Below, piece after piece: positions 1 to 57,353 of a stretch of DNA of 64,000 bases. The position numbers and the translations under genes were made by a program. Numbering within the stretch: the first letter of the stretch is position 1; each line of letters begins with the position of its first letter. Below the pieces are notes generated by a model. It was not told the origin of the DNA and ran no database searches. It worked only from the letters and a program-made list of their open reading frames with translations. The stretch lies in the sequence record OQ561750. One strand, written 5' to 3'. The DNA is from Escherichia phage LHE83.

Positions 1-144
1 CTGCGAGGCACTCGTAGTAATGTCGGAATTTTCTTCCTTAATCTCCTGTTAGGCTGGACGATGATTGGTTGGGTAGTGGCTTTAATCTGGGCTATCGTCG
101 CTGAACGTAAATCAAACGCACAAATCATTATTGTTAAGCAATGA
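1..144 (+). CDS. C-terminal fragment of a small hydrophobic protein (5' end outside window)
   Basis: Open frame from window edge to TAA at 142-144; hydrophobic stretch LLLGWTMIGWVVALIWAIVA; lies in the imm-region position of T4-type maps. Confidence 0.4.
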   Translation: MRGTRSNVGIFFLNLLLGWTMIGWVVALIWAIVAERKSNAQIIIVKQ

Positions 145-285
145 AAATAATTATTTTATTTCTTATAATGACTGCCTTTACCATTTATTGGGCAGTGGCA
201 ATTCCGCCAATGATTCCGACACTCATCATTGGATGGATTATTCTTATAGCACAAATTAAGTATAACTGTTTTAATTGAGGATATT

Positions 286-786
286 ATGAAAAAGTTAATT
301 ATCGCAATGAGTATGCTCCTATCAGGTTGCGCGGTCCAATATGGTGATACAGTTTCGGCTGATGAAGTTGGTAAAGCTCGTATCGCAGCTGAACAGAAAC
401 AATTCGATGGCGAAATGAAATTCCGTGCAGGTTCTGGACTTGTGTACACCCGAGCTAATAATCAATGCGGTAATAACTGTGCAAAATATGCTCAACAAGA
501 AATCGAATTCCAACGTGAACAAGAGTCCAAGCGTGAAGCGGTACTAGCCAAACACCAGGCAGAAATGAAGCGTCAAGATGATTTGTACAAAAAGCAGAAA
601 CTGTATGCGATGTGCGTAAACCATATCAATCTACAGATTTCCATCCACGAGGCTCGTTATTACGAAATGCTCGAAACCGAGAGCTTCGGTAAAGCTCGTG
701 ATTATAAGAAACAAATCGATAAGCTCAAGACCAAAGCACCGGCGGCAATAGAACAGTGTATTGAAATCGGTAAAGATAAGATTTAA
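286..786 (+). CDS. predicted lipoprotein, unknown function
   Basis: Signal peptide with lipobox LLSGC; SD GAGGA 6 nt upstream of ATG. Confidence 0.6.
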   Translation: MKKLIIAMSMLLSGCAVQYGDTVSADEVGKARIAAEQKQFDGEMKFRAGSGLVYTRANNQCGNNCAKYAQQEIEFQREQESKREAVLAKHQAEMKRQDDLYKKQKLYAMCVNHINLQISIHEARYYEMLETESFGKARDYKKQIDKLKTKAPAAIEQCIEIGKDKI

Positions 787-846
787 GCAATACCAATTTA
801 TTAAAAATAGTGTATAATGTACCTACATTCACTTGAGGAACAGATA

Positions 847-2520
847 ATGAAAAAGGTTGTTATTTTAGGCGCGGGTCTTGGCTCACGGTTGTATCCAATT
901 ACCAACGAAATCCCGAAGGTACTGGTTAACTACAAACAACATACTGTATTAAAACATTTGTATGATTTGTATAGTAATCAATCAGATGAAATTATTCTGG
1001 TTATTCACAGCAAATTTAACGACCTCGTTAAAGGCTATATTAAATCCATTAACATGATTAATAGTGATAAGCCTAAATTCACTATTCGTAACGTTGATGT
1101 TGCCAATGGTTCGGCTCATGCTATCGATTGCATTGCCGAAGATATCATTGGGCACAATGTCTTGTTTAACTGGTGTGATATTATTCCTGAAGGTCATAAA
1201 GTTGAGTGGGATAACGACTACTGTTATACCTATGGGACCGACTGTCGTTTTACATTTGAAGAACCGTACTTGCGTGAAATTGGTACCGGTGGTGGCGTAG
1301 TTGGCTTGTATCAGGTGGCTAATTGGACAGGTTTCGACCGTTCTAATTATGGTGAAGACCTTGCTGACAACCTGGATTCAATGGTCCATTTGACTGAACG
1401 TAAGTTAGACTTTGTAGTTGATGTTGGTGACAAACTGAAACTGGCTAAGGCCCATGAAGATTCTGAAATTAACCGTGAATTTAATAAATTAGAGTTCACT
1501 GAGAATCTAGCTATTAAAGTACCTACAAACGAATTAGGTAAAGAAATCCAATCTAAAGAAATCAATTGGTACAATTCTATTGATTCTGAATTCGTTCCTA
1601 GCATTGTAGACTTTGCTCCAGGTGAATTCATTAAAATGGAACGTATCTTTGGTCGAACCATGGCAGATGCCTACCGGTTTATGTCTAAAGAAACTAAAGT
1701 CCTAATGGTTTATAAGGTTATTAGTGCATTACGTTCGTTCGGTGGAACTATCGATAATCCGTCCGATGAGCAATGGTATTCTGATGTTAAGAAAGAAGTA
1801 TTGGACAAGGTCCTTATTCGTAATGCTTCTATTGCCGGATTGATTGAAGGCTTTGCTCCACAGGGTATTACCCATGTTAACGACTTCAAGGTAGGCGACC
1901 CAGAAAAACTTCTTCGTCACGCCTTAGAAATTCTGTCTGAACATAAAGAACCGTACCAACTTATTCATGGCGACCCGCACTACAGTAATATTATGTTGTC
2001 GGACGAAGGTAATATTAAAATCATCGACCCACGTGGTTATTTTGGTAATAGTTCTAAAGGCCCTGCGATTTATGATGAAGCTAAGGTGCTTTATTCTATC
2101 GATGGTTATGACAAATTTAACTCTGACCCTCTATGGGGTGGCTTAACTCGTAACGGAACTCGTGTATTCGTTGATATTGAAAAGGTTATGCCTTTAGATG
2201 ATATTCCGATGTGTACATTTAAGCACAAGCTCTGGATTGCCGTTATTTGGATGGCATTGGCAGGTTACTTTAAAAATAACCCTCTGAAAGCTCTGGGCGC
2301 TTATTACAATGGGCTATATCAACTGAGTGTGCTGCTGAAGCGGCATCCTCGTAAGCGTAAGCTTATCACAGGTGAATTCGTTGATGAAGTTCGCGACCCT
2401 ATCACGGCTCAAATTATCACTCGTTGTCCTGATAAGTGGGTTTTGCTTGACCAGGAAACTGGTGTAAAATATAAACCTACAGGTTCTACCGAACTCCACA
2501 AACAATGGAAGAAAATTTAA
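847..2520 (+). CDS. bifunctional sugar-1-phosphate nucleotidyltransferase / APH-like (anomeric sugar or choline-type) kinase
   Basis: N-terminal glycine-rich loop GAGLGSRLYPIT typical of GlmU/RmlA/MurU/LicC-type nucleotidyltransferases; C-terminal HGDPHYSNIM...IIDPRGY kinase motifs (APH/ChoK fold); start chosen at 847 (SD GAGGA), ORF-track start 817 lies inside the TATAAT. Confidence 0.75.
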   Translation: MKKVVILGAGLGSRLYPITNEIPKVLVNYKQHTVLKHLYDLYSNQSDEIILVIHSKFNDLVKGYIKSINMINSDKPKFTIRNVDVANGSAHAIDCIAEDIIGHNVLFNWCDIIPEGHKVEWDNDYCYTYGTDCRFTFEEPYLREIGTGGGVVGLYQVANWTGFDRSNYGEDLADNLDSMVHLTERKLDFVVDVGDKLKLAKAHEDSEINREFNKLEFTENLAIKVPTNELGKEIQSKEINWYNSIDSEFVPSIVDFAPGEFIKMERIFGRTMADAYRFMSKETKVLMVYKVISALRSFGGTIDNPSDEQWYSDVKKEVLDKVLIRNASIAGLIEGFAPQGITHVNDFKVGDPEKLLRHALEILSEHKEPYQLIHGDPHYSNIMLSDEGNIKIIDPRGYFGNSSKGPAIYDEAKVLYSIDGYDKFNSDPLWGGLTRNGTRVFVDIEKVMPLDDIPMCTFKHKLWIAVIWMALAGYFKNNPLKALGAYYNGLYQLSVLLKRHPRKRKLITGEFVDEVRDPITAQIITRCPDKWVLLDQETGVKYKPTGSTELHKQWKKI

Positions 2521-2879
2521 TGCATCTGTGTTTTGATATCGATAATACCATTACTCACTGGCAAGATGACCGTGATTACGAAAACTTTAAACCGGACACC
2601 GAAATGGTGTCCATGATTAATAAGCTTTATGATGAAGGGTACGAGATTACCTTGTTCACTGCCCGTGGTATGACTTCATGCGGCCCGGGTCGAATCTTGG
2701 TTGAAGTAGTTCCTGCATTAGTTAAGAACCTTGAAAAGATTGGATTGAAATATCACAATCTGCTTACACATAAGCCGAGTTATACTTTTATCATCGATGA
2801 CCGAGCAATCCGTCCTGACCACTTTAAAGAAATGGTTCGTGAAGGAACTCTTGAAACCTATAAGGCATATCATCCGTGA
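2520..2879 (+). CDS. HAD-superfamily phosphatase (small, capless type)
   Basis: Motif I FDIDNTIT near N-terminus, downstream T/K/DD motifs; TAATG overlap with previous gene (alternative start 2505). Confidence 0.7.
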   Translation: MHLCFDIDNTITHWQDDRDYENFKPDTEMVSMINKLYDEGYEITLFTARGMTSCGPGRILVEVVPALVKNLEKIGLKYHNLLTHKPSYTFIIDDRAIRPDHFKEMVREGTLETYKAYHP

Positions 2880-3412
2880 AACCAAAAATCATTGTTATCG
2901 ACGGCCCGGATAATTCCGGGAAGTCTACTTTAATTGAATCACTTTTATCTGATAAGAAATATCGTCTTATTGATTTCCCTAAAAAGATTAATGGCAAATG
3001 CATTTCATTAGGGACCGATAATGACAAGGCTTTAGTCGAGACGTTGTATAAGTTTTTAGACCCTAATTTCGTTTACATCCTTGACCGTGGTTATCCAAGT
3101 AATATTGTTTACTCGGGATTCCTTCGCGGTGAAATGGACCCTTATGTAGAACTGGAAGATTGGAAAAGGTTTAAATCTGAATTCAATATTATTGAGGTTA
3201 TTTTAACCCGTAATCCACTGGATAAAGACTTTGAAGATGACCTTATTAAATTAACCAAAGATGAGTTCAACCTAACTATCCGGCAATATGAAACATGTTT
3301 TGAAAACGTGTTTAAAATCTTAAATCACGACGGCCATAATAACTTGCTTAACGTCGATATGGTAGAATTAAAACGTCTGAATGAATATATTGAAAATAAG
3401 GTGAATAAATGA
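2876..3412 (+). CDS. thymidylate-kinase-like P-loop nucleotide kinase
   Basis: Walker A IVIDGPDNSGKST and DRGYPSNIVYSG resembling Tmk P-loop and DRxxxS..AYQG motifs; GTG start overlapping upstream stop (GTGA). Confidence 0.65.
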   Translation: MKPKIIVIDGPDNSGKSTLIESLLSDKKYRLIDFPKKINGKCISLGTDNDKALVETLYKFLDPNFVYILDRGYPSNIVYSGFLRGEMDPYVELEDWKRFKSEFNIIEVILTRNPLDKDFEDDLIKLTKDEFNLTIRQYETCFENVFKILNHDGHNNLLNVDMVELKRLNEYIENKVNK

Positions 3413-4107
3413 AACACATTACCGCTGTTAGTTTTGAAAACGCGTTTAAGCAAATGAACGAAGAAATCCTGGAAGCTCCACAGTTTGCAGTTGATTCTCG
3501 TATCGGCCGTTGTTATGAAATTGGTTCTGCTTCGGTAGAAGTACTGGATGCAAGCACCTATAAATTCACCGACCCTCGTATTAATCGTATCAACTATGAT
3601 TATGCCGAATCTTTCTGGAAGTTTATGATTTCTGGTGGTACTGACGCCGCCGAAGCATTTAAGGAATACCCTAATGTTGCTAAGTTCATTGATAAGCCGA
3701 AAAGTGACGTATTGCCTGCAAACTTCAACACTTTCTATGGACCTAGAATTGTGGCCCAACTCCCAGCCTTACTTAAAGAGCTTAAAGAGAAGCCTAACTC
3801 AAGACGAGTTGTGTTCCAAATTCTCCAAGAACAAGACCAAGCCCTCCTTGATTCTGACGAATCCTTAGAATATCCATGTACTGATTCAGTGACATATTAT
3901 ATTCGTGATGGACGTCTTTATGCACATACCCATATGCGTTCACAGAACTGTGCTATTGTTATGCAGCTGGATTTCTATCTGCAGGGTAAACTGATGGCCT
4001 TTATTGCTGAACAGTGTGGTGTTGGTCTGGGTACGTATTCCCATACTATGGTTAGTGCACACGTATTTGAACGTGATTTTGACTACGTTCGAGGATTCCT
4101 GAAATGA
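3409..4107 (+). CDS. thymidylate-synthase-fold enzyme, dCMP hydroxymethylase-like (divergent gene 42 homologue)
   Basis: SRRVVF, catalytic Cys in EYPCTD, HMRSQN and Asp (QLDFY) at the position of the TS specificity Asn as in T4 dCMP hydroxymethylase; only distant similarity to T4 gp42 by eye; ATGA overlap with upstream gene. Confidence 0.75.
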   Translation: MKHITAVSFENAFKQMNEEILEAPQFAVDSRIGRCYEIGSASVEVLDASTYKFTDPRINRINYDYAESFWKFMISGGTDAAEAFKEYPNVAKFIDKPKSDVLPANFNTFYGPRIVAQLPALLKELKEKPNSRRVVFQILQEQDQALLDSDESLEYPCTDSVTYYIRDGRLYAHTHMRSQNCAIVMQLDFYLQGKLMAFIAEQCGVGLGTYSHTMVSAHVFERDFDYVRGFLK

Positions 4108-4997
4108 GTTTGTTTATCGTTCCTATTTTCAGTATGCGTAGTTACGAAACAGGTGAATATGCCGTCCTTAAGGACGGTAATTTTCAACTCCATTTAAACC
4201 GTGCTTGCCCAGGTGATTATCTGGCTTATCCTAGAAATTCGAGCGATATCAAAGAATGCATTGAATTATTTCCTGAACTGAATTTTGTACCTCTTTGGTA
4301 TAAAGAAAATGCTTATGAAACTCGTAAACATTTTTGGTCTGAAAATGAGTTCGTTGTTGATTCGTTAATCGAATACTATGACTGCTCAGGATTGGTAACC
4401 GATATCACAGGTTATGATGGTGCTCATACCGTACAATTCAACTTTAACATTACAATGGACCCTGAAGTTCCTCGTTATTACATCGATGAGTTTATTGATA
4501 CCGACGTGGGTTCAGTTGAACGTTCGATTTATACCACAGTCCTGAATCAATGCCAGAAAGACGTCCTGGTGTCACGAGGTGCGTCCTCTGATAAGATTTT
4601 TGTAGACCAAAAGGTAATTAATCCGGCAGTAATTGAGCGTTACTCTGAAGGCCTAGCGCCTATTAAAATTGATGGTATTTTCCATCCATTCCGTATCTCT
4701 GATAAATGTTATCAATTCGAAAGAGTTGTAGACCAAGCTGCGGCTGAAGGTTCTCGCCTTTATATCACCGATCCGAATGATTCATTTAAGCGTGAAGACT
4801 ATCGTCCTGATGTAGAGATTATTAAATTCAAACCGAGTAAGGTTGAATATTATCAGATTCTGAAATCAAGACCTCATATCATTTATCATGAGAATCCCAG
4901 TTTAGTATTTCATCCTGGTCTAGCTGAATTCATTTATTTCGGTGCCCATATCCATTCTGAGCACGAAATGCCAAGTTATGAGGACGTGGTCCTTTAA
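4104..4997 (+). CDS. hypothetical protein at the beta-gt position (candidate DNA-modifying transferase)
   Basis: 297-aa ORF, ATGA-coupled to the 42-like gene and immediately upstream of uvsX; no motif recognised. Confidence 0.5.
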   Translation: MSLFIVPIFSMRSYETGEYAVLKDGNFQLHLNRACPGDYLAYPRNSSDIKECIELFPELNFVPLWYKENAYETRKHFWSENEFVVDSLIEYYDCSGLVTDITGYDGAHTVQFNFNITMDPEVPRYYIDEFIDTDVGSVERSIYTTVLNQCQKDVLVSRGASSDKIFVDQKVINPAVIERYSEGLAPIKIDGIFHPFRISDKCYQFERVVDQAAAEGSRLYITDPNDSFKREDYRPDVEIIKFKPSKVEYYQILKSRPHIIYHENPSLVFHPGLAEFIYFGAHIHSEHEMPSYEDVVL

Positions 4998-5074
4998 CGC
5001 TGTAAATGTGAAGTGATATAATTACCCTATCTTAAAACGTGAGTAAAATATAATGATGCCTATGGAAAAATATA

Positions 5075-6247
5075 ATGTCTGATTTAAAATCCCGTTTGAT
5101 TAAAGCTTCTACTTCTAAAATGACTGCCGACCTGACCAAATCTAAATTGTTTAATGGTCGTGACGAAGTTCCTACTCGTATCCCTATGCTGAATATTGCA
5201 TTAGGCGGTGCGTTGAATGCAGGCTTACAATCAGGTTTGACAATCTTTGCTGCTCCATCTAAACACTTTAAAACGTTGTTTGGACTTACCATGGTTGCGG
5301 CATATATGAAGAAATATCCAGACGCAATTTGTTTGTTCTACGACTCTGAGTTTGGTGCTTCAGAATCTTATTTCCGTTCGATGGGTGTTGATTTAGAACG
5401 TGTGGTTCATACACCAATCCAGTCAGTCGAACAGCTTAAAGTTGATATGACCAACCAATTAGAAGAAATTACTCGTGGCGAAAAGGTTATTATCTTTATC
5501 GACTCCATCGGTAACACTGCTTCTAAGAAAGAAACCGAAGATGCTTTGAACGAGAAAGTTGTAGGTGATATGACTCGTGCTAAATCACTGAAATCTCTGT
5601 TCCGTATCGTAACACCTTATCTGACCATCAAGGATATCCCTTGTGTAGCAATTAACCACACGGCTATGGAAATTGGTGGAATGTACCCTAAAGAGATTAT
5701 GGGTGGTGGTACTGGTATTCTGTACTCTGCTTCTACCGTGTTCTTTATCTCTAAACGTCAGGTTAAAGATGGTACTGAGCTCACTGGTTATGACTTCACA
5801 CTGAAGGCCGAGAAATCTCGTACGGTTAAAGAGAAATCAACGTTCCCGATTACAGTGAACTTCGAAGGTGGTATCGACCCATTCAGTGGATTGCTTGAAA
5901 TGGCTACTGATATTGGCTTTGTCGTGAAACCTAAAGCTGGCTGGTATAATCGTGCATTCCTTGACGAAACCACAGGCGAAATGGTTCAAGAAGAAAAAGC
6001 ATGGCGTGCTAAAGCTACTGATTGTGTTGAGTTCTGGGGACCACTGTTTAAACATGCTCCGTTCCGTGAAGCAATCGAGAATAAGTATAAGCTTGGTGCA
6101 ATTAATTCTATTAAAGAAGTTGACGATGCGGTTAATGACCTTATTAACTCTCGTGTCTCTAAGAACGTTGCTGTTAAATTAGGTGGTAATGCCCAAAGCG
6201 CCGCTGATATCGAAAACGATTTGGAAGAGATGGATTTAGATGACTGA
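5075..6247 (+). CDS. uvsX: UvsX RecA-like recombinase
   Basis: N-terminus MSDLKSRLIKASTSK... and RecA core closely match T4 UvsX by recollection. Confidence 0.95.
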   Translation: MSDLKSRLIKASTSKMTADLTKSKLFNGRDEVPTRIPMLNIALGGALNAGLQSGLTIFAAPSKHFKTLFGLTMVAAYMKKYPDAICLFYDSEFGASESYFRSMGVDLERVVHTPIQSVEQLKVDMTNQLEEITRGEKVIIFIDSIGNTASKKETEDALNEKVVGDMTRAKSLKSLFRIVTPYLTIKDIPCVAINHTAMEIGGMYPKEIMGGGTGILYSASTVFFISKRQVKDGTELTGYDFTLKAEKSRTVKEKSTFPITVNFEGGIDPFSGLLEMATDIGFVVKPKAGWYNRAFLDETTGEMVQEEKAWRAKATDCVEFWGPLFKHAPFREAIENKYKLGAINSIKEVDDAVNDLINSRVSKNVAVKLGGNAQSAADIENDLEEMDLDD

Positions 6248-6569
6248 TTTATCTGATTTAGATAATTTCGTTAAAGATACCGAAGAGGGTCCTAGTGACC
6301 CTCGTTATTATGAGAAATCGTTAGATATAATCCGTAAGTCAATGGGGTCTGTTAAGCAGGAAATTATGCTTACTTTACCCGATGGCACTGCTCACATCGT
6401 TTATGTGATGAATATTGTTATTGAGAAAGATGGAAAAGTGTCGGTTGATTTCGGAACACCTTCCGAAGACCGAAAAGAAGAGCTAGCGCTTCATGTAGAA
6501 AAATGTGTTACAATGCAAATACAAGAAGAACTGGATAAAATTAAATCTAAGAGGTGGTGGAAGTGGTAG
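6240..6569 (+). CDS. 40: gp40-like head vertex assembly chaperone
   Basis: Size and position between uvsX and 41 as in T4. Confidence 0.6.
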   Translation: MTDLSDLDNFVKDTEEGPSDPRYYEKSLDIIRKSMGSVKQEIMLTLPDGTAHIVYVMNIVIEKDGKVSVDFGTPSEDRKEELALHVEKCVTMQIQEELDKIKSKRWWKW

Positions 6570-7993
6570 AAACTATTTTGGCTCAACTGCTAGGCAATAG
6601 TGATTATTTCACTAAGGTCTGGCCTTATATGAATGATTCTTATTTTGACCAGGGTCCTGCAAAGACCCTTTTCAAAGAAATTAAAAAACACGTCAATGAA
6701 TATAATGCAGTGCCTTCTAAGAACGCGCTGAGCATTGCATTAGATAACAGCACGCTTTCAGAAGTTGAACACCAAGGCGCTAAAGAGCTTTTAAGTTCAC
6801 TGAATGCCGGACCTGAAGACCAAGAATGGTTGGTTAAAGAGACGGAGAAATACGTTCAGAAAGCAGCGATGTATAATGCAACTTCAAAAATCATTGAAAT
6901 CCAAACTAATGCAGACCTTCCGGTTGAGCAACAAAATAGAAAACTTCCAGGTATTGGTGCTATTCCAGATATCATGCGTGATGCATTATCGATTTGTTTC
7001 GATTCTGAATTAGGTCATGACTGGATGGATGACTATGAAGAACGTTTCAAAAGTTATTCTGATAAAGCACGTAAGGTTCCGTTCCGTCTTAATATTCTGA
7101 ATAAGATTACCAAAGGTGGTGCCGAGTTTGGTACTGAAAACGTATTGTTGGCAGGAACAAACGTAGGTAAGTCTCTTGGTCTTTGTTCATTGGCTGCTGA
7201 TTATCTTCAATCTGGTTACGATGTTCTTTATATCTCCATGGAGATGGCAGAGGAAGTATGTGCTAAGCGTATCGATGCCAACCTTCTGGATGTGTCACTG
7301 GATGATATCGATGACGGCCATGTCTCTTGGCCTGAATATAAAGCTAAGATGGATAAATGGCGTTCAACTGCTACTTTAGGTCGTTTAAAGATTAAACAGT
7401 ACCCTACCGGTGGCGCTAATGCCGATACATTCCGTGCATTATTAAACGAATACAAACTCAAACAAAACTTTGTTCCACAGGTCGTTATCGTCGACTACTT
7501 GGCCATCTGTGCATCATCTCGTACGAAAGTTTTCTCTGAAAACAGTTACGGATTGATTAAGATGGTAGCCGAAGAACTACGTGGACTTGCAGTAGAAAAG
7601 AAATTATTGTTGTGGACTGCAGCCCAGACTACTCGTGGTGCGAACGTTGCAGCCGAAATCGATATGGCTGATATTGCTGAATCCTTTGGTATTGCACATA
7701 CTGCAGACTTCATGTTAGGTGTGGTCGAGACAGAAGAGTTTGCTCAGATGGGTATGCAGATGGTTAAGCAGCTTAAATCTCGTTATGGTGATAAGAGCTA
7801 CTACAACAAATTTAAGATTGGTGTTAAGAAAGGAAATCAACGTTGGTACGAAGTTGAAGACGATTCCAACCCAGGCCAGGTGAACACCGTTCGTGAGGCT
7901 ACAGGTGAGATGAATCGTCAAGCCGAGGTCAATCGACAGACGCTTGTTAATAGAAGTGATTTGGACGATTTAGCAGCATCTATCAAATTTTAA
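6554..7993 (+). CDS. 41: replicative DNA helicase gp41 (DnaB-like)
   Basis: 479 aa; Walker A AGTNVGKS; strong match to T4 gp41 by recollection. Confidence 0.95.
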   Translation: MVEVVETILAQLLGNSDYFTKVWPYMNDSYFDQGPAKTLFKEIKKHVNEYNAVPSKNALSIALDNSTLSEVEHQGAKELLSSLNAGPEDQEWLVKETEKYVQKAAMYNATSKIIEIQTNADLPVEQQNRKLPGIGAIPDIMRDALSICFDSELGHDWMDDYEERFKSYSDKARKVPFRLNILNKITKGGAEFGTENVLLAGTNVGKSLGLCSLAADYLQSGYDVLYISMEMAEEVCAKRIDANLLDVSLDDIDDGHVSWPEYKAKMDKWRSTATLGRLKIKQYPTGGANADTFRALLNEYKLKQNFVPQVVIVDYLAICASSRTKVFSENSYGLIKMVAEELRGLAVEKKLLLWTAAQTTRGANVAAEIDMADIAESFGIAHTADFMLGVVETEEFAQMGMQMVKQLKSRYGDKSYYNKFKIGVKKGNQRWYEVEDDSNPGQVNTVREATGEMNRQAEVNRQTLVNRSDLDDLAASIKF

Positions 7994-11306: not shown

Positions 11307-11828
11307 ATGGCACACTTTAACGAATGCTCACAACTTATTGCTGGTGTTGATAAAGCTGAGGAAGCTTATTTTAATGCTCTGATTCACGAAGATAAAGACC
11401 CTCTGCAGGTTATGCTTGATATGCAGAAATCATTACAGGTCCGTTTGGCTAAAGATAAACCTGAATATAACCGTCATCCTGATGACTTGGCTACTGCAGG
11501 TGAAGTTGTTGATTGGTTGCGCAATCAGAAAGATTATATTGATGATGAATTCCGCGAACTTCTGACTTCTCTTGGTGGCATGAGCAATGGCGAAAAAGAT
11601 GCGAGCGCTGTATGGAAGCCTTGGAAAGCTCAACATGCTGAACGTCGTGAAACCCTGATTAACGATTTGTCTCCTGAAGACCAGCTCGAAATTAAATTCG
11701 AAATGATTGATATTCTGCACTTTGTTCTGAATATGTTCCAAGGTCTTGGACTGACTGCTGAAGAAATCTTTAAACTGTATTACCTGAAAAATGCCGAGAA
11801 CTTTGCTCGCCAGGACCGAGGTTATTAA
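11307..11828 (+). CDS. 56: dCTPase/dUTPase (MazG-like) gp56
   Basis: Size, position and similarity to T4 gp56 by recollection. Confidence 0.8.
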   Translation: MAHFNECSQLIAGVDKAEEAYFNALIHEDKDPLQVMLDMQKSLQVRLAKDKPEYNRHPDDLATAGEVVDWLRNQKDYIDDEFRELLTSLGGMSNGEKDASAVWKPWKAQHAERRETLINDLSPEDQLEIKFEMIDILHFVLNMFQGLGLTAEEIFKLYYLKNAENFARQDRGY

Positions 11829-26251: not shown

Positions 26252-26265
26252 TCTAAGGAAATATT

Positions 26266-27231
26266 ATGTACAATATTAAGTGTTTGACCTCCGCTGAGCA
26301 AGTTGAAATCGTTAAGTTATATATTTCTGGTAATTATACTCAGAATGAGTTGGCTGACTGGTACAGTGTATCAGTTGATACAATCCGTAAAGTCCTGAAA
26401 AATGCTAAAGGAGCTGGACAGGCCCAGGTAGTTATTACCGGAAATATCAAAGTAACAGTTCCTAACGAGCCTCGTGAAGTTCCCGTTGAAGTTACTATTG
26501 GCGGCTCTCGCCCTGAAATTATCTGGAACGCGAGTTCTAAATTCGTATCCATCACTGAAGGTCGTACAGTATGGAACACCACTAATAAGAACAAACATTT
26601 TGATGCCATCGTACAGGCCCTTAAAGAATCCCGTTTTGACGACGCGATTAAACTGATTTCCATTAAAGAAGCTGTTAAGGCCTTCGTCAAAGGTAACGTT
26701 CGTATTGAAGGTGGTCGTCTGGTTTACCAAGGCATCGAATTGCGTTCAGGGTTGATTGACCGTATTATTACTTCAATGGAAAATGGTGAAGACTTCGAAT
26801 TCTACCTGCCTTTCCTTGAAAACCTGTTAGAAAACCCAAGCGAAAAAGCTGTACAACGTTTGTTCGACTTCCTGGTTGCAAACGACATCAAAATTACTGA
26901 AGATGGCCACTTTATTACGTGGAAGGTAGTTAACTCCGATTACACCGACTGCCGTACTGGTACGTTTGATAACTCACCAGGCAAACCGGTTAAAATGCCT
27001 CGTTCACGTGTAAACGATGACGATACAGTAACTTGTTCAAGAGGTCTGCACGTTTGCTCTCGTAGCTATATCGGTGCATTCGGTAATTCAAACAACCGTG
27101 TAGTTTCATGTAAAGTTAACCCACGTGATGTTGTTAGTATTCCTGTTGATTATGGTGATGCTAAAATGCGCGTATGTTATTATGAAGTTCTGGAAGACGT
27201 TACCGATCAGTTTAAATCAGATTTACGTTAA
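26266..27231 (+). CDS. rIIB: rIIB protein
   Basis: 321 aa directly downstream of rIIA. Confidence 0.8.
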   Translation: MYNIKCLTSAEQVEIVKLYISGNYTQNELADWYSVSVDTIRKVLKNAKGAGQAQVVITGNIKVTVPNEPREVPVEVTIGGSRPEIIWNASSKFVSITEGRTVWNTTNKNKHFDAIVQALKESRFDDAIKLISIKEAVKAFVKGNVRIEGGRLVYQGIELRSGLIDRIITSMENGEDFEFYLPFLENLLENPSEKAVQRLFDFLVANDIKITEDGHFITWKVVNSDYTDCRTGTFDNSPGKPVKMPRSRVNDDDTVTCSRGLHVCSRSYIGAFGNSNNRVVSCKVNPRDVVSIPVDYGDAKMRVCYYEVLEDVTDQFKSDLR

Positions 27232-28329: not shown

Positions 28330-28587
28330 ATGAAATTCTATTACGCCAAACATAAAATTACCCGTGAGTTTGTATCGTTTTCAACCTTTTCAGATGAAGA
28401 AGACTTTTGCATCACTGGTCTGGATTTATCTAAATATGAAACCGACCAGCCTTATTTGACCACTCATGACGAGATTCAACGTTTGGTGAACGGTGAGCTA
28501 AATAATTCTTACTGCACTCAAATTTACCCTGCTTTGAAAAAAGCTATCAATGCTAATCAGATTGAAATCATTGAGGTGGAATTGTGA
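28330..28587 (+). CDS. hypothetical protein, small paralog 1
   Basis: KFYYAKHKIT...LVNGELNN shared with next ORF. Confidence 0.55.
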   Translation: MKFYYAKHKITREFVSFSTFSDEEDFCITGLDLSKYETDQPYLTTHDEIQRLVNGELNNSYCTQIYPALKKAINANQIEIIEVEL

Positions 28588-28850
28588 ATATCAAATTATA
28601 TTACGCTAAACACAAAGTTACGGGTACGGTTGTTGCCGCCATGTATGACGCGTCAGGTGATGGTGACGATATTACTACAGAGTTATCTCTTTCTGAATGT
28701 AAATTTCTCCGTCCTTTAATCGCATCAAAGGAAGATTTACAAAAACTTATCGATGGAAAACTGGATAATGTTGATGGCATAGATATTCTTTATGACCTTC
28801 GCACTGCATTGTACAGAGGATTGATTGAAATTAAAGAGGTAGTATTTTGA
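28584..28850 (+). CDS. hypothetical protein, small paralog 2
   Basis: GTG start, SD GAGGTGG; KLYYAKHKVT...LIDGKLDN. Confidence 0.55.
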   Translation: MNIKLYYAKHKVTGTVVAAMYDASGDGDDITTELSLSECKFLRPLIASKEDLQKLIDGKLDNVDGIDILYDLRTALYRGLIEIKEVVF

Positions 28851-28995
28851 GTAGCAAAATGTGGTGCCTTATTTGGTTGACCTGTATCCCAGTGATTTGC
28901 GTATGTTTTAGTTTATTGTTGTGAAAATTGGCATAAAACAGTGTACATCTCCATTAATCATGATATTATAGACCTATCAACTAATGGAGATGATT

Positions 28996-29106
28996 ATGAA
29001 AAACTTACTTAAAGCAATTTGGAACATGTTTGTGTTGTTAATGGTATTGAGCATTTTCCCAATCGTTTTTATGATTGACCATGTACGTGTATTCTTTAAT
29101 TTCTGA
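28996..29106 (+). CDS. small membrane peptide (36 aa)
   Basis: SD GGAGA; hydrophobic core; preceded by GTTTAC promoter. Confidence 0.5.
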   Translation: MKNLLKAIWNMFVLLMVLSIFPIVFMIDHVRVFFNF

Positions 29107-29116
29107 GGAAAATATT

Positions 29117-29329
29117 ATGAAACTTTTTAAAGATGTCGCAGTTGGTGAGAGCTTTGTATTACATAACGGCCAACAACTGATTCGCATTTCTCCTTTGCAA
29201 GTTGGTACTGAATTACAACCTGTTAATGCCACAGACCTTTATGATTCAACTAAGCGTTTTTGTGTAGGCCCTAGTGTGCAATGCCTTACTGTTGATGAAC
29301 TGATGGCTATTTCTGTTGACGCTGAATAA
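29117..29329 (+). CDS. hypothetical protein
   Basis: SD GAGGA. Confidence 0.5.
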   Translation: MKLFKDVAVGESFVLHNGQQLIRISPLQVGTELQPVNATDLYDSTKRFCVGPSVQCLTVDELMAISVDAE

Positions 29330-29339
29330 GGAAAATATT

Positions 29340-29684
29340 ATGTCTAAATTATTTTTTGGTAATCGCAACATTATGTTCTTTAAACAACTCAGCCTCCAAG
29401 ATGCATCGGTGGCATTCAATCAAAGTATGATTCCCGGTGTAGATTCAAAAATTATGACGAGTGCTGATTTCGTTTTCGTTCAAGACCCAGAAACAGGCTT
29501 TTATCGGTTCATTAAATTTCGTATGAGTATGGACCCAGGTTATCATAGTGCTTACTACGTGAGTTATGAAAACGTTATCAAAGAATTACGTGATACCTAT
29601 GGACGCGCTTTGAACCCGCTGAACAAGGTTTATAATGCTTCTTTTTATACGAGCGGATTTATTTTAGAACAGCTACAAAAATAG
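29340..29684 (+). CDS. hypothetical protein
   Basis: SD AAGGA. Confidence 0.5.
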   Translation: MSKLFFGNRNIMFFKQLSLQDASVAFNQSMIPGVDSKIMTSADFVFVQDPETGFYRFIKFRMSMDPGYHSAYYVSYENVIKELRDTYGRALNPLNKVYNASFYTSGFILEQLQK

Positions 29685-36361: not shown

Positions 36362-39300
36362 TTATAATAATGATTTAATTAATGCTTTCAATTCAGCAAT
36401 TTCAGATTTCAATTCCTTGATTTCGTCAGTATGCTCGTTGATAGTAGCAGTATTTAAACCGATAATACCGTTATAGTTCAAACGAAGTAAGCCAGTCTCT
36501 TTATCTTCAGTCACAAGTTCAGGCAATACTTCTTGAACTTCCTGAGCGATTAAACCTGCGGATGGTTTAACTTCGTCTGTAACAGAGTTTTTAAGCAAAT
36601 AAGTATAACCACCTAAGAGTTTGGATTTCTCTTGAGCGTTATCAATAAGCTTAATTTCCGACTTACAGCGAATATCAGAACGGATATAAACGTCGTTAAC
36701 ATCGATATTATCACGAACATACATCCCGGCGTTAACGTTAAGGGCCACGTTGCCAAATGTCTGAGCAAGTCCGGCTCTAAAACTAAACACACCTTGACCG
36801 TTTGCATGTGCGTTGAAAATACCATCGGATTCCCAGACCAATCCAGTGTCAGCGTCACCAATAGCAATACACGGCGTAGTCCAGGCGGGTTCAACACCGA
36901 CACCAATACCAGCCCAACCAGAAACAATTCTTCCTGGGGAACTAAACTGACCGTTGGCCTTAAATTGATAAACCGCTGCAGGATGACCACTTTCCGGGGT
37001 ATTTTCTGATGAACGGACAATTATACAACCAGTACCCCATTCAGCATTACCACTGCGTAACGAGCCTAGTTCTACGCTTGTGTTATATCCATGCCCTGCT
37101 GAAGAACTTCGCCCTTTAATAATAGGATAGTACACGTTCCCGTTTAATTCGCCGTGTTCTACAAATATAGGGGCTTCAAGACCATACTGCGGGCTAATGG
37201 CACCCGGGTTTTGAGAGACCCATCTTGTGGCATTAACGTACATACGGTTTTCACTCATATTAACCAAACCAAACCCGCCCGGGCTAAATCCGATTGTCCT
37301 GTTATCTGATAAATCAATACCGGTAGTTGTTTTGTAGTTATAAAAAGATACTGAACCGCTTTCACCACCTTTACCAACAAACCAACTATTAGCACCACCA
37401 ACTTCTGAACGAATATGCGAACTATTAGTGGCATTAGGTGCTCTAATTACTAAAGCATCATCGGCCGCAGCAATAGTCAGCTTACCGGTCATCGTGTCGC
37501 CTTCTTTAGCCACACGGGAGGCAATAGCATCATGGATGTTGGTTATATCACCAGCAGAGCTAAATAATTTCCAAATATCAGAGAAGATATTACCATTTCG
37601 AGCAATAGTAGCTTCACCGCCGCCGACCTGTACGTTATCCGGGAAGTTAACTGTACCGTCAGCATTAAATCTTGAGGTATGACCTCCGGTCCCGTCTTCT
37701 TTAAGATGGTGTAAAACAAAAGTCCCGGAATTAATTTCAGTACCTAAAGACCAAACAGCTTTTCCTTGTAAGAATTTTTGCTTAACAATAGGATAATATT
37801 TACTTACTGCGTCATCATCAATTTCTTGGAAAACAGGAGCGGCCTGGGCATATTGAATATCATAACCACCTGCACCTGCACCATGTCCACCGAATTTAAT
37901 ATAGCCGTTTGCTGCAAAAGAAGCATAACTCAAATCTAGGTCAGGAATAACAACCTTACCTGTATCTAAAGCCATACTAAATGGACGGAGTGGGCCTATA
38001 TCACCGGTCATGCCCTCACCAAATGCAGTAGGAATAATGTGAAGACTTCCTTCTGAACGTCTAAAAATGACCCCGTAATCGTTGTTCCAGATGCGGAGCC
38101 CGTTAACAGCATTTGTAGTAATTTCACCAGCGGTGTGGACCGCTCTATCAACCAAAATATCTTTTTTAACAACAAGATTTTCGTTAATAGTTTGTTGCCC
38201 ATTTAATACAGCCTCAATGGTATTATCTTTATTGCGCTGGATATAATGCATCCAACTAATATCATCAGATATTTCCATCACGTTTTTACGAAAGCCATCT
38301 ACTGTATTAAAGGTGTTACCCCATACGGCAATAGACATATTATCAACAGAGCTCTGGCCGGTGGTATAACCTTTAAAAAGCAAAATCGAGTTGTTATTAC
38401 GACCGTCAATATTAACAGAACCACCAACAACATCAATATTACCAGGAGTAACTAACAAACCACCAGCGGTGTTAACGTTTGTAGTACCCTTACCACGGAA
38501 ATAGTGGTGATAATTGCCACCTTGGTAATAACCTAAAAGAGTTTGACCATCACCAAATGCGTTATTATCATGATAAGTAACAACAGTGGCTAATGCATAG
38601 TTTTCCGACGGAGGAGTGGTTAAATCGGTACCGTTTACAGAATAACCCATAACCATTTTTCTAAGACTGGTGGTTTCTGCAGGGCTGTACAGGAAAGTTC
38701 TCGTGCCGTTATTAACGCTGAAATAATATCCATCCTGATGCCATTTTAACCCGGTGTCATTATCGCCAAGAGCAATTGAAGCCGTTCCTAATTCAGAATA
38801 TCCTTTAGAGTTGCCTGGGGTGCCTACAGAAATAGAATGACCGGCTTTCAATCCGCCAGACCAGGTAAACGACCAAAGATAAGCTTCTAAGCCATCGCCG
38901 GCATACCAGGTTATTCCGTCGTTATCTTTAACTTCATGGAAAATGCTCGAACTAACTGCATTTCGCATAACACGAAGGTGGTTAATAGCCGTTTCACTTT
39001 CAGCCAATGGGTTATTATCGGCCATTGAATAGATATCATAATCGCCTGTCTTCTTCCCATTTGTAATAACTTTATCGGTCAGAATTTGTGGAGACGAAAT
39101 AGATTTCCATGCTGATACTTCAGGTGAAGTGAACAAACCATTACCTGAAAATGCATAAGTGCTTTCGCTTGCAGTAGAATAATCTTGTACACGAATATTA
39201 ACTACCTGATTGGTCAAACCTGCATTATTAGGAGAAAAGATAATACCACGCTCACGGTCATCGCCATCAAAGAAACGAAGGTGAGAAGTTGAAGCGCTCT

Positions 39301-39640
39301 TAGAAATAAGTTCGCCACCATGGGTCATTATCTGACCTGCAGCAATAATATCACGAGTTACGCGAGCAATACCGTTGAGATTAAAATCACCAATTTGAGT
39401 AAATACACCATTTAGGGTGTAATCGCCGGTCTGGTTGTAGTTACCGTTATGAATAACATTGCCGTCAATATTACCACCTTTAGCAAAGCCAAGGTCGATA
39501 ATCGCTCCAGTATCGTCTTTAGTAAAAAGTAATCGGTCCTTTAAGTTAATAGCCAGTTCACCTTCAGCCAACTGGGCCGGTGTCGGACGTACACCGGCTA
39601 CTTTACTTCTTTTAAATTGGATTTGCTTTAAAGTAGCCAT
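36362..39640 (-). CDS. 37: long tail fibre distal subunit gp37 with C-terminal intramolecular-chaperone-like domain
   Basis: 1092 aa; conserved N-terminus; C-terminus [13 protein letters not shown]...coiled coil. Confidence 0.9.
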
Positions 39641-47172: not shown

Positions 47173-47822
47173 TTAAGATTCGCATGCCACCAAACAATAA
47201 CCGTATGGTGAATGGTAAGAGCGTATATTCACTATACTTAATGCTCAAACATCACTTCAATGCCAAATACGACGTTATAAAATATAACTGGGTCATGCGA
47301 ATCTCTGATACGGCTTATCAAAAACGTCGTGACAAATATTTCTTTGAGAAATTGAGTGATAAATACACTTTGAAAGAGCTTGCTCTTATCTTCATGAGTA
47401 ACTTGGTGGCTAACCAAGATGCATGGATTGGCGATATCAGTGATGCTGACGCCTTAGTCTTTTACCGAGAATATATCGGTAGACTTAAAAGAATAAAACA
47501 AGTTTTTGAGGATGATATCAAAAACATTTATTATTTTAGTAAGAAAGTGGAAGTTCAAGCGCTTTCTGAAATTTTTGATTATAATAAAAAAGTTAACTCG
47601 AGCTATATTTTTAAGCTCCTTCAATCGAATGTTATTTCATTCGAAACGTTTATTTTGCTTGATTCATTTATGGATATAATTGATAAACATGATGAACAGA
47701 CCAACGATTTAGTGTGGTCTAAGTATTCGACTAAATTAAATGCTTATAAGAAAATTCTTATAATTGATAATTTAGAAGCTCGTAAATTGTTCATCGAAAC
47801 AATTAAGGGTTGCAAATTTTGA
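47169..47822 (+). CDS. 59: helicase loader gp59
   Basis: 217 aa; MIKIRMP...KYDVIKYNW...LVANQDAWIGDISDADALVFYREYIGRLK matches T4 gp59. Confidence 0.9.
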   Translation: MIKIRMPPNNNRMVNGKSVYSLYLMLKHHFNAKYDVIKYNWVMRISDTAYQKRRDKYFFEKLSDKYTLKELALIFMSNLVANQDAWIGDISDADALVFYREYIGRLKRIKQVFEDDIKNIYYFSKKVEVQALSEIFDYNKKVNSSYIFKLLQSNVISFETFILLDSFMDIIDKHDEQTNDLVWSKYSTKLNAYKKILIIDNLEARKLFIETIKGCKF

Positions 47823-47836
47823 ATATAGTTTATAAA

Positions 47837-48454
47837 ATGACTTGGATTAATCGTCAGGCTAATAATATTAAGCCGTTTTCGTACATAGGTTCTAAAACTA
47901 ATTGTACTTTTGAAAATGGCGTGATTATTGACTGTAAAGGTAAAGAGTATTGGACCTCTTGCGAGCAATCAAGATTTAAAGAGGCCATCGAAGAAGAAAA
48001 ACCTATTGTTGAAATTTTGGCTATAACGCCATTTGATATTGTTATTAATATTGAACGTTCAGAACAATTGGAAGTTCAAGCTAGAGATAATGATGATTAT
48101 TTTAATTTGGTTTATGCCGGTGGCGGATTTGGAGTCTTTGGATGCACTCACCCAGCCAAACGTCCTGAAGTTAGAGCCCATATGAAAGCTGCTAACTATA
48201 TGAATCAACCCGATTACCGTCCTTGGAAAACTTCTAGAGCAAACCCTTTAGATTGGATGCTTAGTGATATTGCTTATACTAATTATTGTATAATTAATTC
48301 TAGTGGAAGAGCTTGTGGATGGAGGCGTCTCATTAACTCTGGTATAAATGTTAGTGAAACTACATCAAAGAGTATGATTAAACAATTTAATGAGGGTTGG
48401 GTTCCTAATGATGACCCTGAATTCATTAAGTTAAAAATGCTTTATTCGAAGTGA
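47837..48454 (+). CDS. hypothetical protein in AT-rich insert at the segG position (possible mobile/homing-endonuclease-related gene)
   Basis: Lies between 59 and 32 where T4 has segG; AT-rich; YIGSKT-like motif; no SD. Confidence 0.4.
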   Translation: MTWINRQANNIKPFSYIGSKTNCTFENGVIIDCKGKEYWTSCEQSRFKEAIEEEKPIVEILAITPFDIVINIERSEQLEVQARDNDDYFNLVYAGGGFGVFGCTHPAKRPEVRAHMKAANYMNQPDYRPWKTSRANPLDWMLSDIAYTNYCIINSSGRACGWRRLINSGINVSETTSKSMIKQFNEGWVPNDDPEFIKLKMLYSK

Positions 48455-48552
48455 TATATAATTACTTCATCTTCAAAACCTAGTTATCAAGGTAAACGTG
48501 ATAACAACAACTGTTAATAAATTTATTAAATATATCAAATAAGGTAAATAAT

Positions 48553-49464
48553 ATGTCTATGTTTAAACGCCGTAATCCTGCTGAACTTGCTGCTCAACTG
48601 TCTGCAATGAAAGGCGGCTCTTCTTTCTCGTCTGATGACAAATCCGAATGGAAATTGAAAGATGACAATGGCGTAGGAACCGCAGTTATTCGATTCCTTC
48701 CTTCGAAAAACGAAGCTAATCCATCCCCATTCGTTAAGCTTGTTAACCATGGTTTTAAGAAAAATGGTCAGTGGTATATCGAATCATGTACGTCTACTCA
48801 TGGTGATTTCGATTCATGTCCTGTATGTAAATACATGAACCAGAATGATACCTTTAATACTAATAATGCCGAATACAAACTGATGAAACGTAAAACTTCC
48901 TTCTGGGCTAACATCCTTGTTATTAAGGATAGTGCAGTACCTGCTAACGAAGGTAAAGTGTTTAAATTCCGTTTCGGTCAGAAAATTATGGATAAAATCA
49001 ACCAGATGGTTGAAGTTGATACTGATATTGGTGAAGTGCCGGTTGACGTAACATGTCCGTTTGATGGTGCGAACTTCGTACTGAAATCTAAGAAAGTTGG
49101 CGACTTCAAGAACTACGACGATTCCAAATTCATGGGTCAGTCTGAAATTCCTAACATCAATGATGAAGCTTACCAAGCTAAATTGATGGAAGAAATGCAC
49201 GACCTTTCTAAACTGCTCGATTTCAAATCATTCGAAACTAACGAAGCTAAGTTTAAGAAAGTTGTTGGTACAGCTGCTCTTGGTGGTGCTGCCGCTAAAG
49301 CTTCTGCAGCCGCTGATAAGATTGGTGATGACCTGGACGCATTCAGTGCAGACCTTGATGCATATGACTCCAAACCATCTACACCGACTCGTTCCACTAC
49401 TCCTGAGCCGTCAGTAAGTCCTTCTGATGACGATGGTCTGGACGACCTGTTAGCTGGTCTATAA
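48553..49464 (+). CDS. 32: ssDNA-binding protein gp32
   Basis: [12 protein letters not shown]...VIRFLPSKN...[10 protein letters not shown]...; acidic C-terminus. Confidence 0.95.
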
Positions 49465-50288: not shown

Positions 50289-50516
50289 ATGGCTAAGGTT
50301 AATATTGATATCGTTGATTTTGAATACACTTACGAAGTTATCCGTAATCGTTATCCTTCTTTAGTTATGACCCATATTAAAGATACCCAATTCTGTAGTA
50401 TGCAAATTGAAGTCCAAGGTCCTCTTGAAGACCTTACCCGCTTTATGGCTGACGAGTATTGTGACGGTATGCACCCGGAAGACGCTAAATTTTATATGGG
50501 CTTGATTCAAGCTTAG
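50289..50516 (+). CDS. hypothetical protein
   Basis: SD GAGGA. Confidence 0.5.
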
Positions 50517-50575
50517 TGTACAAACCAACGGGAACATATTATCATGTTCCCTCAATTGAATATGAGGAAATTAAA

Positions 50576-50953
50576 ATGATGGAAACTGGTAAATTTTACG
50601 TATTAGACCCTGCCGCTAAAAAACAATTCATCGCGGGTAGTCCTGATGATAATTATAATTCGTGCATAGTCAAGTTGATGGAACAGCATGGCAATTCCTT
50701 CAAAGTCCTGGATATGTGTTATATTGAAGGCAGTTATTTTGTTGAAAAAGTTGAAATGAAAGATGGTACCATCCTGAATAGTATGGGCGGTGCTGATGAG
50801 TACTTTGAACTCGGTGAATGGGAATTCTGTCACTTCCTGGAAGTTGATGGCGATGTTCCTGATGTTGATACCCAAACCATTCATGTACAAGTCAATCACA
50901 AAAATGCCGCTGAAGTCATTGCCCTGATTAAAGCAACTTTTGATATTCAGTAA
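50576..50953 (+). CDS. hypothetical protein, paralog of 49574-49963
   Basis: GKFYVL...YFEL...TQTIHV...LIKATFDIQ; SD GAGGA. Confidence 0.55.
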   Translation: MMETGKFYVLDPAAKKQFIAGSPDDNYNSCIVKLMEQHGNSFKVLDMCYIEGSYFVEKVEMKDGTILNSMGGADEYFELGEWEFCHFLEVDGDVPDVDTQTIHVQVNHKNAAEVIALIKATFDIQ

Positions 50954-51029
50954 AAAGTAGTATACACCCAAATGGGGCTATGATATAATGGTCCCATACT
51001 GAGATAACAACTAAACACCGGAGAATAAA

Positions 51030-52712
<1,683 letters not shown>

Positions 52713-56912: not shown

Positions 56913-56917
56913 GGAAT

Positions 56918-56931
56918 GGGGCTTCGGCCCC
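56918..56931 (+). other. GGGGC-UUCG-GCCCC hairpin between the SD (AAGGA) and start codon of denA
   Basis: Perfect stem/tetraloop 9 nt upstream of ATG at 56940. Confidence 0.6.
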
Positions 56932-56939
56932 TTATTGCT

Positions 56940-57353
56940 ATGAAAGAAATCGCAGACGAATTTAGCTTTATCAAGTACGTCACCCTAGAACTCCAAGATG
57001 ACGCCAGCATTGCTCCACTCACAGTACCAAATAAACAAAATGTCATATATGCTATAGCGGTTGATGATATACTAGTCTACATCGGGAAGACTAAAAATCT
57101 TCGTAAGCGCATCAACTACTACCGAACCGCTATTAATCGTAAGGACCAAACGTCAGATTCGACCAAGTCCATTCTGATTCATGAAGCATTAATGGCAGGT
57201 AAAAAGGTAGAGTTCTATGCACGGCAGTGCTTTAATCTGTCGATGACTAACGAACTTGGAACTATGTCAGTTGAGACCATGTCTCTTGAAGAGCCAATGT
57301 TCATAAAGAAATTTAATCCACCTTGGAATACCCAACATAGGATAAAGCAATGA
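56940..57353 (+). CDS. denA: endonuclease II (GIY-YIG family)
   Basis: MKEIADEFSFIKY...VIYAIAVDDILVYIGKTKNLRKRINYYR matches T4 EndoII. Confidence 0.85.
   Translation: MKEIADEFSFIKYVTLELQDDASIAPLTVPNKQNVIYAIAVDDILVYIGKTKNLRKRINYYRTAINRKDQTSDSTKSILIHEALMAGKKVEFYARQCFNLSMTNELGTMSVETMSLEEPMFIKKFNPPWNTQHRIKQ

Follow-up and report, generated by a model that had tools for sequence, protein, structure and literature searches.

The stretch of DNA analysed here, which we call the window, consists of 64,000 nucleotides of Escherichia phage LHE83 (sequence record OQ561750), whose genome is that of a Dhakavirus (Tevenvirinae, T4-like). Our subject is a cluster of five plus-strand genes at positions 847-4997, which sits between imm/gene 43 and uvsX and is followed downstream by uvsX, gene 40 and gene 41. 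Over this region identity is 99.6% with Salmonella phage vB_SalD_ABTNLS3; with Escherichia phage QL01, also a Dhakavirus, it is 99.3%. An earlier note on this DNA had placed the five genes where T4 carries gene 42 and beta-gt. The correspondence is confirmed, the T4 order at the equivalent locus being 43-imm.1-imm-42-beta-gt-segA-uvsX, and the interval from gene 43 to uvsX holds the cluster in Dhakavirus, Mosigvirus and Marfavirus.

The five open reading frames (ORFs), all on the plus strand, begin at the start codons used in the QL01 RefSeq annotation. ORF1 spans 847-2520 (557 aa from the ATG at 847, open frame from 817), ORF2 2520-2879 (119 aa from the ATG at 2520, open frame from 2505), ORF3 2876-3412 (178 aa, GTG start), ORF4 3409-4107 (232 aa) and ORF5 4104-4997 (297 aa). 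Reading the junctions from the sequence, we recovered the stop/start overlaps that had been described, namely TAATG at 2518-2522, GTGA at 2876-2879, ATGA at 3409-3412 and ATGA at 4104-4107, through the last of which ORF5 overlaps ORF4 by 4 nt. These overlaps had been taken as a sign of co-expression. The overlaps themselves stand, but QL01 shows how common they are: over 18 kb of its genome, 11 of 33 gene junctions are of this kind, five of them in a row. Because about one third of the junctions overlap in this genome, overlaps alone are weak evidence for a module, and we rejected them as proof of one; the evidence rests instead on orthology, synteny and co-occurrence. A Shine-Dalgarno sequence (GAGGA, plus strand, 835-839), read from the sequence, lies 7 nt 5′ of the ATG at 847. 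A promoter and terminator scan of positions 1-5400 gave nothing beyond chance, with 17 promoter-like sites against 17.5 expected and two terminator-like sites against 4.1. Upstream of 847 we saw no MotA box, and a lone TATAAT at 813-818 lacks a good -35 element.

ORF4 proved the most informative of the five products. It has the thymidylate synthase (TS) fold that the earlier note had recognized (Pfam Thymidylat_synt, E 4.8e-14), but the dCMP-hydroxymethylase signatures also reported there did not hold up. ORF4 is 79% identical to gp48 of phage RB69, compared with 25% over 159 aa to T4 gp42, and in PDB sequence searches it matched 9iqc/9iqu/9ir2 (E 1.5e-125) far better than T4 gp42 (1b49, E 4.7e-6). 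Alignment with E. coli ThyA, T4 gp42 and RB69 gp48 showed that Cys146 is kept and that ORF4 carries the changes L143E, D169N and N177D; position 169 is Asp in T4 gp42 and E. coli ThyA and Asn in ORF4, a substitution thus absent from T4 gp42. The 9iqc/9iqu sequence is, by eye, near-identical to RB69 gp48, and the PDB codes matched by ORF4 (9iqc/9iqu) and ORF2 (9iqw) are adjacent. This fits HY126 structures that Lee et al. cite, and we take 9iqc, 9iqu and 9iqw to be these. RB69 gp48 and its counterpart gp80 of Acinetobacter phage DLP3, both TS homologues, convert dCMP to 5-hydroxy-dCMP (5hodCMP) in a flavin-dependent reaction whose oxygen comes from O2; an Asn at ThyA position 169 marks out enzymes with this activity, D169N having correctly predicted nine further 5hodCMP enzymes, and N177D marks dCMP specificity (PMC13326640). 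Because of the D169N signature, the 79% identity to RB69 gp48 and the 25% identity to gp42, ORF4 is predicted to be a 5hodCMP synthase and not a dCMP hydroxymethylase, that is, a flavin- and O2-dependent dCMP C5-hydroxylase orthologous to RB69 gp48.

The product of ORF5 had been described as a 297-aa protein of no recognizable motif at the beta-gt position, and in keeping with this our Pfam and NCBIfam searches gave no match. A PDB sequence search found nothing specific either, and the protein was placed only by fold comparison. Its AlphaFold2 model (43 homologues; mean pLDDT 95.1, pTM 0.90) matched UDP-GlcNAc 2-epimerases (E 1.8e-6), MshA (3c4q, TM 0.60), BshA, PimB′ and HepE in a Foldseek search of the PDB, and comparable fold matches have been published for RB69 gp46:47 (PMC13326640). 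ORF5 is 70% and 64% identical to RB69 gp47 and gp46, and 45% identical to a protein of Serratia phage 92A1, which is named among the phages reported to carry arabinosylated 5-hydroxydeoxycytidine (PMC13326640). On its modelled fold and these identities, ORF5 is a predicted glycosyltransferase (GT) of GT-B fold, orthologous to RB69 gp47:46 ('arabinosyltransferase 1'), and is proposed to attach the base-proximal alpha-arabinofuranose to 5-hydroxycytosine. It does not appear to be a standard T-even glucosyltransferase: BLASTP of ORF5 against T4 alpha-gt and beta-gt gave E > 3 for both, and tblastn found no significant match to either in the window or the QL01 genome.

As had been claimed, ORF1 joins two catalytic domains. 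The motifs GAGLGSRLYPIT and HGDPHYSNIM...IIDPRGY are both present, and Pfam places NTP_transferase at residues 13-110 (E 2.5e-8) and APH at residues 356-427 (E 9e-6, residues counted from the ATG at 817), each above its curated cut-off. The protein is collinear with RB69 gp53 and gp52 (44% and 41% identity) and has a full-length match to PHROG 4098; its nucleotidyltransferase domain resembles GlmU, MurU and HddC, and a PDB sequence search with the fusion returned nothing specific. By sequence, ORF1 is thus a putative N-terminal sugar-1-phosphate nucleotidyltransferase fused to a C-terminal APH/choline-kinase-like sugar kinase, orthologous to RB69 gp53:52 and to AfhE of phage HY126, which is described as an arabinose-5-phosphate 1-kinase and UDP-arabinofuranose pyrophosphorylase (He et al., Nat Chem Biol 2026, as summarised in PMC13326640).

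ORF2 contains the HAD DxDxT motif (FDIDNTIT) on which its assignment as a phosphatase had been based and is 62% identical to RB69 gp51. It matched PDB 9iqw (E 1.6e-51), named 'capsule biosynthesis protein', and 1xpj (E 3.5e-12); the match to NCBIfam TIGR01689 (capsule biosynthesis phosphatase, E 1.9e-14) fell below the curated cut-off, and Pfam gave a weak HAD match. We assign it as a putative HAD-superfamily phosphatase, orthologous to RB69 gp51 and HY126 AfhF; AfhF converts arabinofuranose-1,5-bisphosphate to arabinofuranose-1-phosphate (He et al., as summarised in PMC13326640).

The thymidylate-kinase-like P-loop kinase reported for ORF3 was likewise recovered. PHROG 761 'thymidylate kinase' matched with E 9e-40, Pfam gave a weak P-loop/Tmk match, and a PDB sequence search, otherwise without anything specific, matched YorR weakly (2axp/3kb2). 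ORF3 is 37% identical to RB69 gp45 and, judged from these similarities, is a Tmk-like P-loop nucleotide kinase orthologous to RB69 gp45 and DLP3 gp78. In Rhizobium phage RL38J1, a hexose user, a Tmk-like kinase accompanies a TS homologue and a GT (PMC13326640), which ties this kinase to the making of the base rather than of the sugar. A role of the 5-hydroxymethyldeoxyuridine DNA kinase type was also considered for this protein; its best matches are thymidylate kinases and YorR-type nucleotide kinases.

Taken together, all five ORFs have RB69 orthologues in the gene 43-uvsX cluster (37-79% identity, E 1e-35 to 1e-144). The fusion has homologues in 367 phage records, the GT in 352 and the Tmk-like kinase in 343, with a near-equal breakdown by organism name (Escherichia 176, Acinetobacter 57, Klebsiella 25-26, Shigella 15). 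In RB69 and DLP3 cytosine is replaced by mono- or poly-arabinosylated 5-hydroxycytosine, in which the sugar is ether-linked directly to C5 (Lee et al., NAR 2026, PMC13326640), the remaining genes of the cluster being predicted to produce and transfer UDP-arabinofuranose (PMC13326640). We conclude that the five genes, which read as functional, are very probably the core of the pathway through which T4-like phages hypermodify their DNA to arabinosyl-5-hydroxycytosine. The earlier proposal of a cytosine-hypermodification module fed by a phage-made, non-host NDP-sugar is therefore borne out by orthology to RB69. Its further question, whether the pathway was that of arabinosyl-5-hydroxymethylcytosine (arabinosyl-hmC), has a clear answer: the pathway is of the RB69 arabinosyl type, but the base is 5-hydroxycytosine and not hmC. 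The RB69-type product, once read as arabinosyl-hmC, is now given as arabinosyl-5-hydroxycytosine (PMC13326640; PMC13390438), and an independent study of the Mosigvirus NP has confirmed the revised structure. The pathway has already been described in work published in 2018 and 2025-2026, its presence in Dhakaviruses included, since these are listed among the groups carrying the syntenic cluster (PMC13326640).

The proposed pathway would have two branches. In the base branch gp56 would turn dCTP into dCMP, and the TS homologue (3409-4107) would hydroxylate dCMP at C5 with flavin and O2, as we infer from its identity to RB69 gp48 and from D169N. The triphosphate would then be reached through the phage deoxynucleoside monophosphate (dNMP) kinase (gp1, encoded outside the window), possibly the Tmk-like kinase, and host nucleoside diphosphate kinase, and the phage polymerase would insert the 5-hydroxycytosine nucleotide instead of dC. 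In the sugar branch arabinose-5-phosphate would first receive a C1 phosphate from the fusion's C-terminal kinase domain, the HAD phosphatase would take off the 5-phosphate and the N-terminal nucleotidyltransferase domain would produce UDP-arabinofuranose; these steps are drawn from orthology to HY126 AfhE and AfhF, as these are summarised in PMC13326640. Both branches would meet at the GT-B enzyme (4104-4997), which presumably places arabinofuranose onto the 5-hydroxyl. In related phages such a modification has been shown to protect DNA against restriction enzymes and CRISPR, and we expect the same protection here.

The Dhakavirus cluster is a minimal, five-gene form of this system. Searching the window and the whole QL01 genome, we found no homologue of RB69 gp50 (U32 family), gp49 or gp3 (the second arabinosyltransferase). 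A second GT elsewhere in the genome was looked for and rejected: in QL01 the GT-family profile matched ORF5 only, without a paralogue, and no GT domain came up when the larger unannotated proteins of QL01 were scanned with Pfam (DLP3 gp76/77 were not among the queries). Extra arabinosyltransferases (RB69 gp3; DLP3 gp76/77) define di- and tri-arabinosyl variants and not the family. The arabinose-5-phosphate isomerase, too, is probably not universal to the cluster family, as none lies beside gene 43 in the Marfavirus Klebsiella phage vB_Kpn_F48. Host KdsD and GutQ make arabinose-5-phosphate for the synthesis of 3-deoxy-D-manno-octulosonic acid (Kdo). With no isomerase and a single transferase, the Dhakavirus pathway is predicted to draw its arabinose-5-phosphate from host KdsD/GutQ and to yield mono-arabinosyl-5-hydroxycytosine.

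Several points weigh against this reading. A literature search found no nucleoside or chemical analysis of any Dhakavirus DNA. A homologue of the arabinose-5-phosphate isomerase (RB69 gp55) was not found by tblastn of the window and the whole QL01 genome. The sugar specificity of the fusion is a prediction, its identity to the characterised Mosigvirus enzyme being no more than 41-44%, and the Tmk-like kinase has no assigned role or substrate. Purified GTs were inactive on DNA containing 5-hydroxycytosine in the presence of UDP-arabinofuranose, and the first arabinosyl transfer was not reconstituted (Lee et al., PMC13326640). Furthermore, TH1_063 of Shewanella phage Thanatos, a GT-like protein of 300 aa encoded beside the TS homologue, was reported to show UDP-xylose pyrophosphorylase activity in vitro (PMC12838424). 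By position and size only, it is likely the Thanatos counterpart of ORF5, and this report conflicts with a pure transferase role and with the assignment 'arabinosyltransferase 1' by Lee et al.

Some of these points allow another order of events, in which the conserved trio of this minimal cluster (TS homologue, acidic GT and Tmk-like kinase) would join the first arabinose to free 5hodCMP ahead of replication, giving arabinosyl-5hodCMP, and the Tmk-like kinase would phosphorylate the bulky product. The polymerase would then insert an already glycosylated dNTP, which would be unprecedented for phage DNA glycosylation. What leaves room for this order is the kinase substrate, the target of the first transfer, which Lee et al. 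leave undecided between nucleotide and DNA (PMC13326640), the activity of TH1_063 and, weakly suggestive, the acidity of the GT family (isoelectric point 4.9 for ORF5 and a median of 5.2, compared with 9.05 for T4 beta-gt). The charge argument for a nucleotide-level transferase is weak, T4 alpha-gt having an isoelectric point of 6.1. We regard pre-replicative arabinosylation as unlikely, including its step in which the Tmk-like kinase takes on the arabinosyl-5hodCMP that a general dNMP kinase could not handle.

Somewhat less probable still is that the 5-hydroxycytosine carries a different sugar, either another pentose such as xylose or a hexose. The moderate identity of the fusion to that of RB69 and the lack of an isomerase in the window and QL01 would fit such a sugar, RL38J1 places hexoses on 5-hydroxycytosine (PMC13326640), and TH1_063 is active on xylose-1-phosphate in vitro (PMC12838424). 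Against this, the GT and the HAD phosphatase are 64-70% and 62% identical to the RB69 enzymes, and F48 keeps the cluster without an isomerase gene at the RB69 gp55 position (searched at the locus only). The host, moreover, supplies arabinose-5-phosphate through KdsD/GutQ, which is textbook knowledge. Thanatos, with its single GT, is mono-arabinosylated (Lee et al., PMC13326640).

Classical T-even chemistry, in which the TS homologue would be a dCMP hydroxymethylase and the DNA would carry glucosyl- or arabinosyl-hmC, was the framing of the earlier note and also how RB69 was read in 2018. The TS homologue does occupy the gene-42 locus, T4 gp42 and ORF4 have N177D and an acidic residue 143 in common, and some GenBank records bear the label dCMP hydroxymethylase. 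However, ORF4 has Asn where T4 gp42 and E. coli ThyA have Asp169, it is far closer to RB69 gp48, shown to produce 5hodCMP, than to gp42, the revised RB69 and NP structures show 5-hydroxycytosine with an ether-linked sugar, and neither the window nor QL01 holds an alpha-gt or beta-gt homologue, so that we consider this chemistry very improbable. That the sugar-activating genes serve a target other than DNA, for example host capsule or lipopolysaccharide, and are merely neighbours of the nucleotide genes is hardly credible: the capsule names of the HAD matches (the TIGR01689 subfamily and 9iqw) and the likeness of the nucleotidyltransferase domain to GlmU, MurU and HddC speak for it, but the sugar genes, GT and kinase are tightly syntenic and near-equally distributed over ~350 phage genomes, phage GTs use UDP-arabinofuranose on RB69 DNA in vitro (PMC13326640) and arabinose is present in RB69 and NP virion DNA.

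The wider window holds the context genes from which cytosine replacement had been argued, all of which we located. The gp56 dCTPase/dUTPase gene (11307-11828, plus strand) maps to QL01 gp027 'gp56 dCTPase' and matches Pfam dUTPase_2; it is an accessory gene outside the cluster, which supplies dCMP and removes dCTP. The alc gene (58557-59057, plus strand; Pfam ALC, E 4e-41, and QL01 annotation) encodes a product that blocks transcription on cytosine-containing DNA, and denA (56916-57353, plus strand; QL01 'denA gene product', Pfam GIY-YIG) encodes endonuclease II, which cuts such DNA; cd lies at 62595-63140. A true thymidylate synthase gene, td, is found at 51855-52712 (plus strand; Pfam E 2.7e-99), so that the phage has two TS-fold genes differing in chemistry, td and the 5hodCMP synthase homologue. 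Between imm and the cluster, a 166-aa ORF at 286-786 (plus strand) has a lipoprotein-type signal peptide with a lipobox (MKKLIIAMSMLLSGC), no Pfam match and a match to PHROG 1754, of unknown function; it probably lies outside the modification module.

The window maps onto QL01 from 26754 down to 35 and then from 170527 down to 133677. At about 26258-26283 it crosses the point where the QL01 record arbitrarily ends and begins again (the rIIA/rIIB junction), which is consistent with a circularly permuted genome and not with a structural feature. No QL01 megablast block longer than 800 bp covers 28344-29644, 36490-39426, 47806-48584 or 50510-51020, and identity elsewhere is 91-99%. The largest uncovered interval is, by position, the distal tail-fibre (gp37) gene region, which suggests mosaic host-range variation.

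Public labels for these genes are misleading, the 5hodCMP synthase appearing as 'thymidylate synthase' or 'dCMP hydroxymethylase' and the HAD protein, in RefSeq and PHROGs, as 'phosphoheptose isomerase', a name we rejected as incompatible with a HAD phosphatase fold. In the records of IME341, vB_EcoM_005 and SAKp28, the features under the GT match include 'RNA polymerase binding protein'. Our analysis corrects such labels, along with 'thymidylate kinase' and 'hypothetical', for the genes of the cluster. It also predicts that Dhakaviruses, which are considered for phage therapy, carry arabinosyl-5-hydroxycytosine DNA, a modification that would affect sequencing, cloning, sensitivity to restriction and CRISPR, and targeting by type IV restriction systems and DNA glycosylases. 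The result adds little as discovery, the pathway and its presence in the genus being published; the useful part is the minimal gene set, which shows that the isomerase, the second transferase and the U32 protein are dispensable and offers the simplest system in which to ask what the Tmk-like kinase acts on and whether nucleotide or DNA receives the first sugar.

In the Mosigvirus and Marfavirus clusters, a Peptidase_U32-family protein with a C-terminal Cys cluster is encoded directly upstream of the 5hodCMP synthase gene. The copies in RB69 (gp50, 6493-7662 of the RB69 locus sequence) and F48 (gp95, 4907-6067 of the F48 locus sequence) are 86% identical, and in F48 the following ORF (gp96, 6064-6309 of the same sequence) encodes a prephenate-forming type II chorismate mutase. 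The U32 enzymes RlhA, TrhP and UbiU/V carry out O2-independent, prephenate-dependent hydroxylations, including at C5 of RNA pyrimidines. 5-Hydroxycytosine could thus be made without oxygen through the U32/chorismate-mutase pair. RB69 gp50 bears the label 'sugar or heterocycle reductase' in Lee et al. (PMC13326640), and our full-text literature search found no paper linking the pair to 5-hydroxycytosine. In Dhakaviruses, which lack both genes, cytosine hydroxylation would then be wholly O2-dependent and arabinose-5-phosphate would come entirely from host KdsD/GutQ, a corollary that we attach to the unlikely pre-replicative reading.

Among known systems, T4 (gp42, alpha-gt and beta-gt) has in common with the window the locus, the logic (a dCTPase, a TS-family enzyme acting on dCMP and a GT-B transferase) and the accessory genes alc, denA and cd. 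T4, however, makes a hydroxymethyl base with methylenetetrahydrofolate as cofactor and uses host UDP-glucose, whereas here the base would be hydroxylated with flavin and O2 and the donor made by the phage; the T4 GTs show no sequence similarity to ORF5. Acinetobacter phage DLP3 (gp76-83) has the fusion, HAD phosphatase, Tmk-like kinase, TS homologue and proximal GT, with Acinetobacter phage homologues 40-50% identical to the window proteins, and differs by two further GTs, an isomerase (gp83) and tri-arabinosyl chains. The Mosigviruses (RB69, HY126, Bas46-47 and NP; RB69 gp45-gp55 and gp3, HY126 Afh genes) have orthologues of all five genes, the same locus and the same TS signature. In comparison, the window lacks the gp55 isomerase, the gp50 U32 protein, gp49 and the second arabinosyltransferase gp3, its Tmk-like gene stands between the HAD and TS genes rather than after the GT, and its fusion and GT are intact, each being split in the RB69 record (gp53 and gp52; gp47 and gp46).

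The gene order of the window (fusion, HAD, Tmk-like, TS homologue, GT) is that of Marfavirus F48, whose GT, fusion and kinase are 69-80% identical to ours and in which, as in the window, gene 43 and the fusion have no isomerase gene between them (again at the locus searched). In F48, but not in the window, the Tmk-like and TS genes are separated by the U32-family gene and the 81-aa type II chorismate mutase. The pentosyl-cytosine cluster of Thanatos (TH1_060-063) belongs to a distant host and lineage, and its TH1_063 is reported as a UDP-xylose pyrophosphorylase. By description, it nevertheless resembles the window in having a 561-aa nucleotidyltransferase-kinase fusion, a 237-aa TS homologue and a single GT-like protein of ~300 aa, and by this analogy it appears to be the best precedent for a single-GT cluster.

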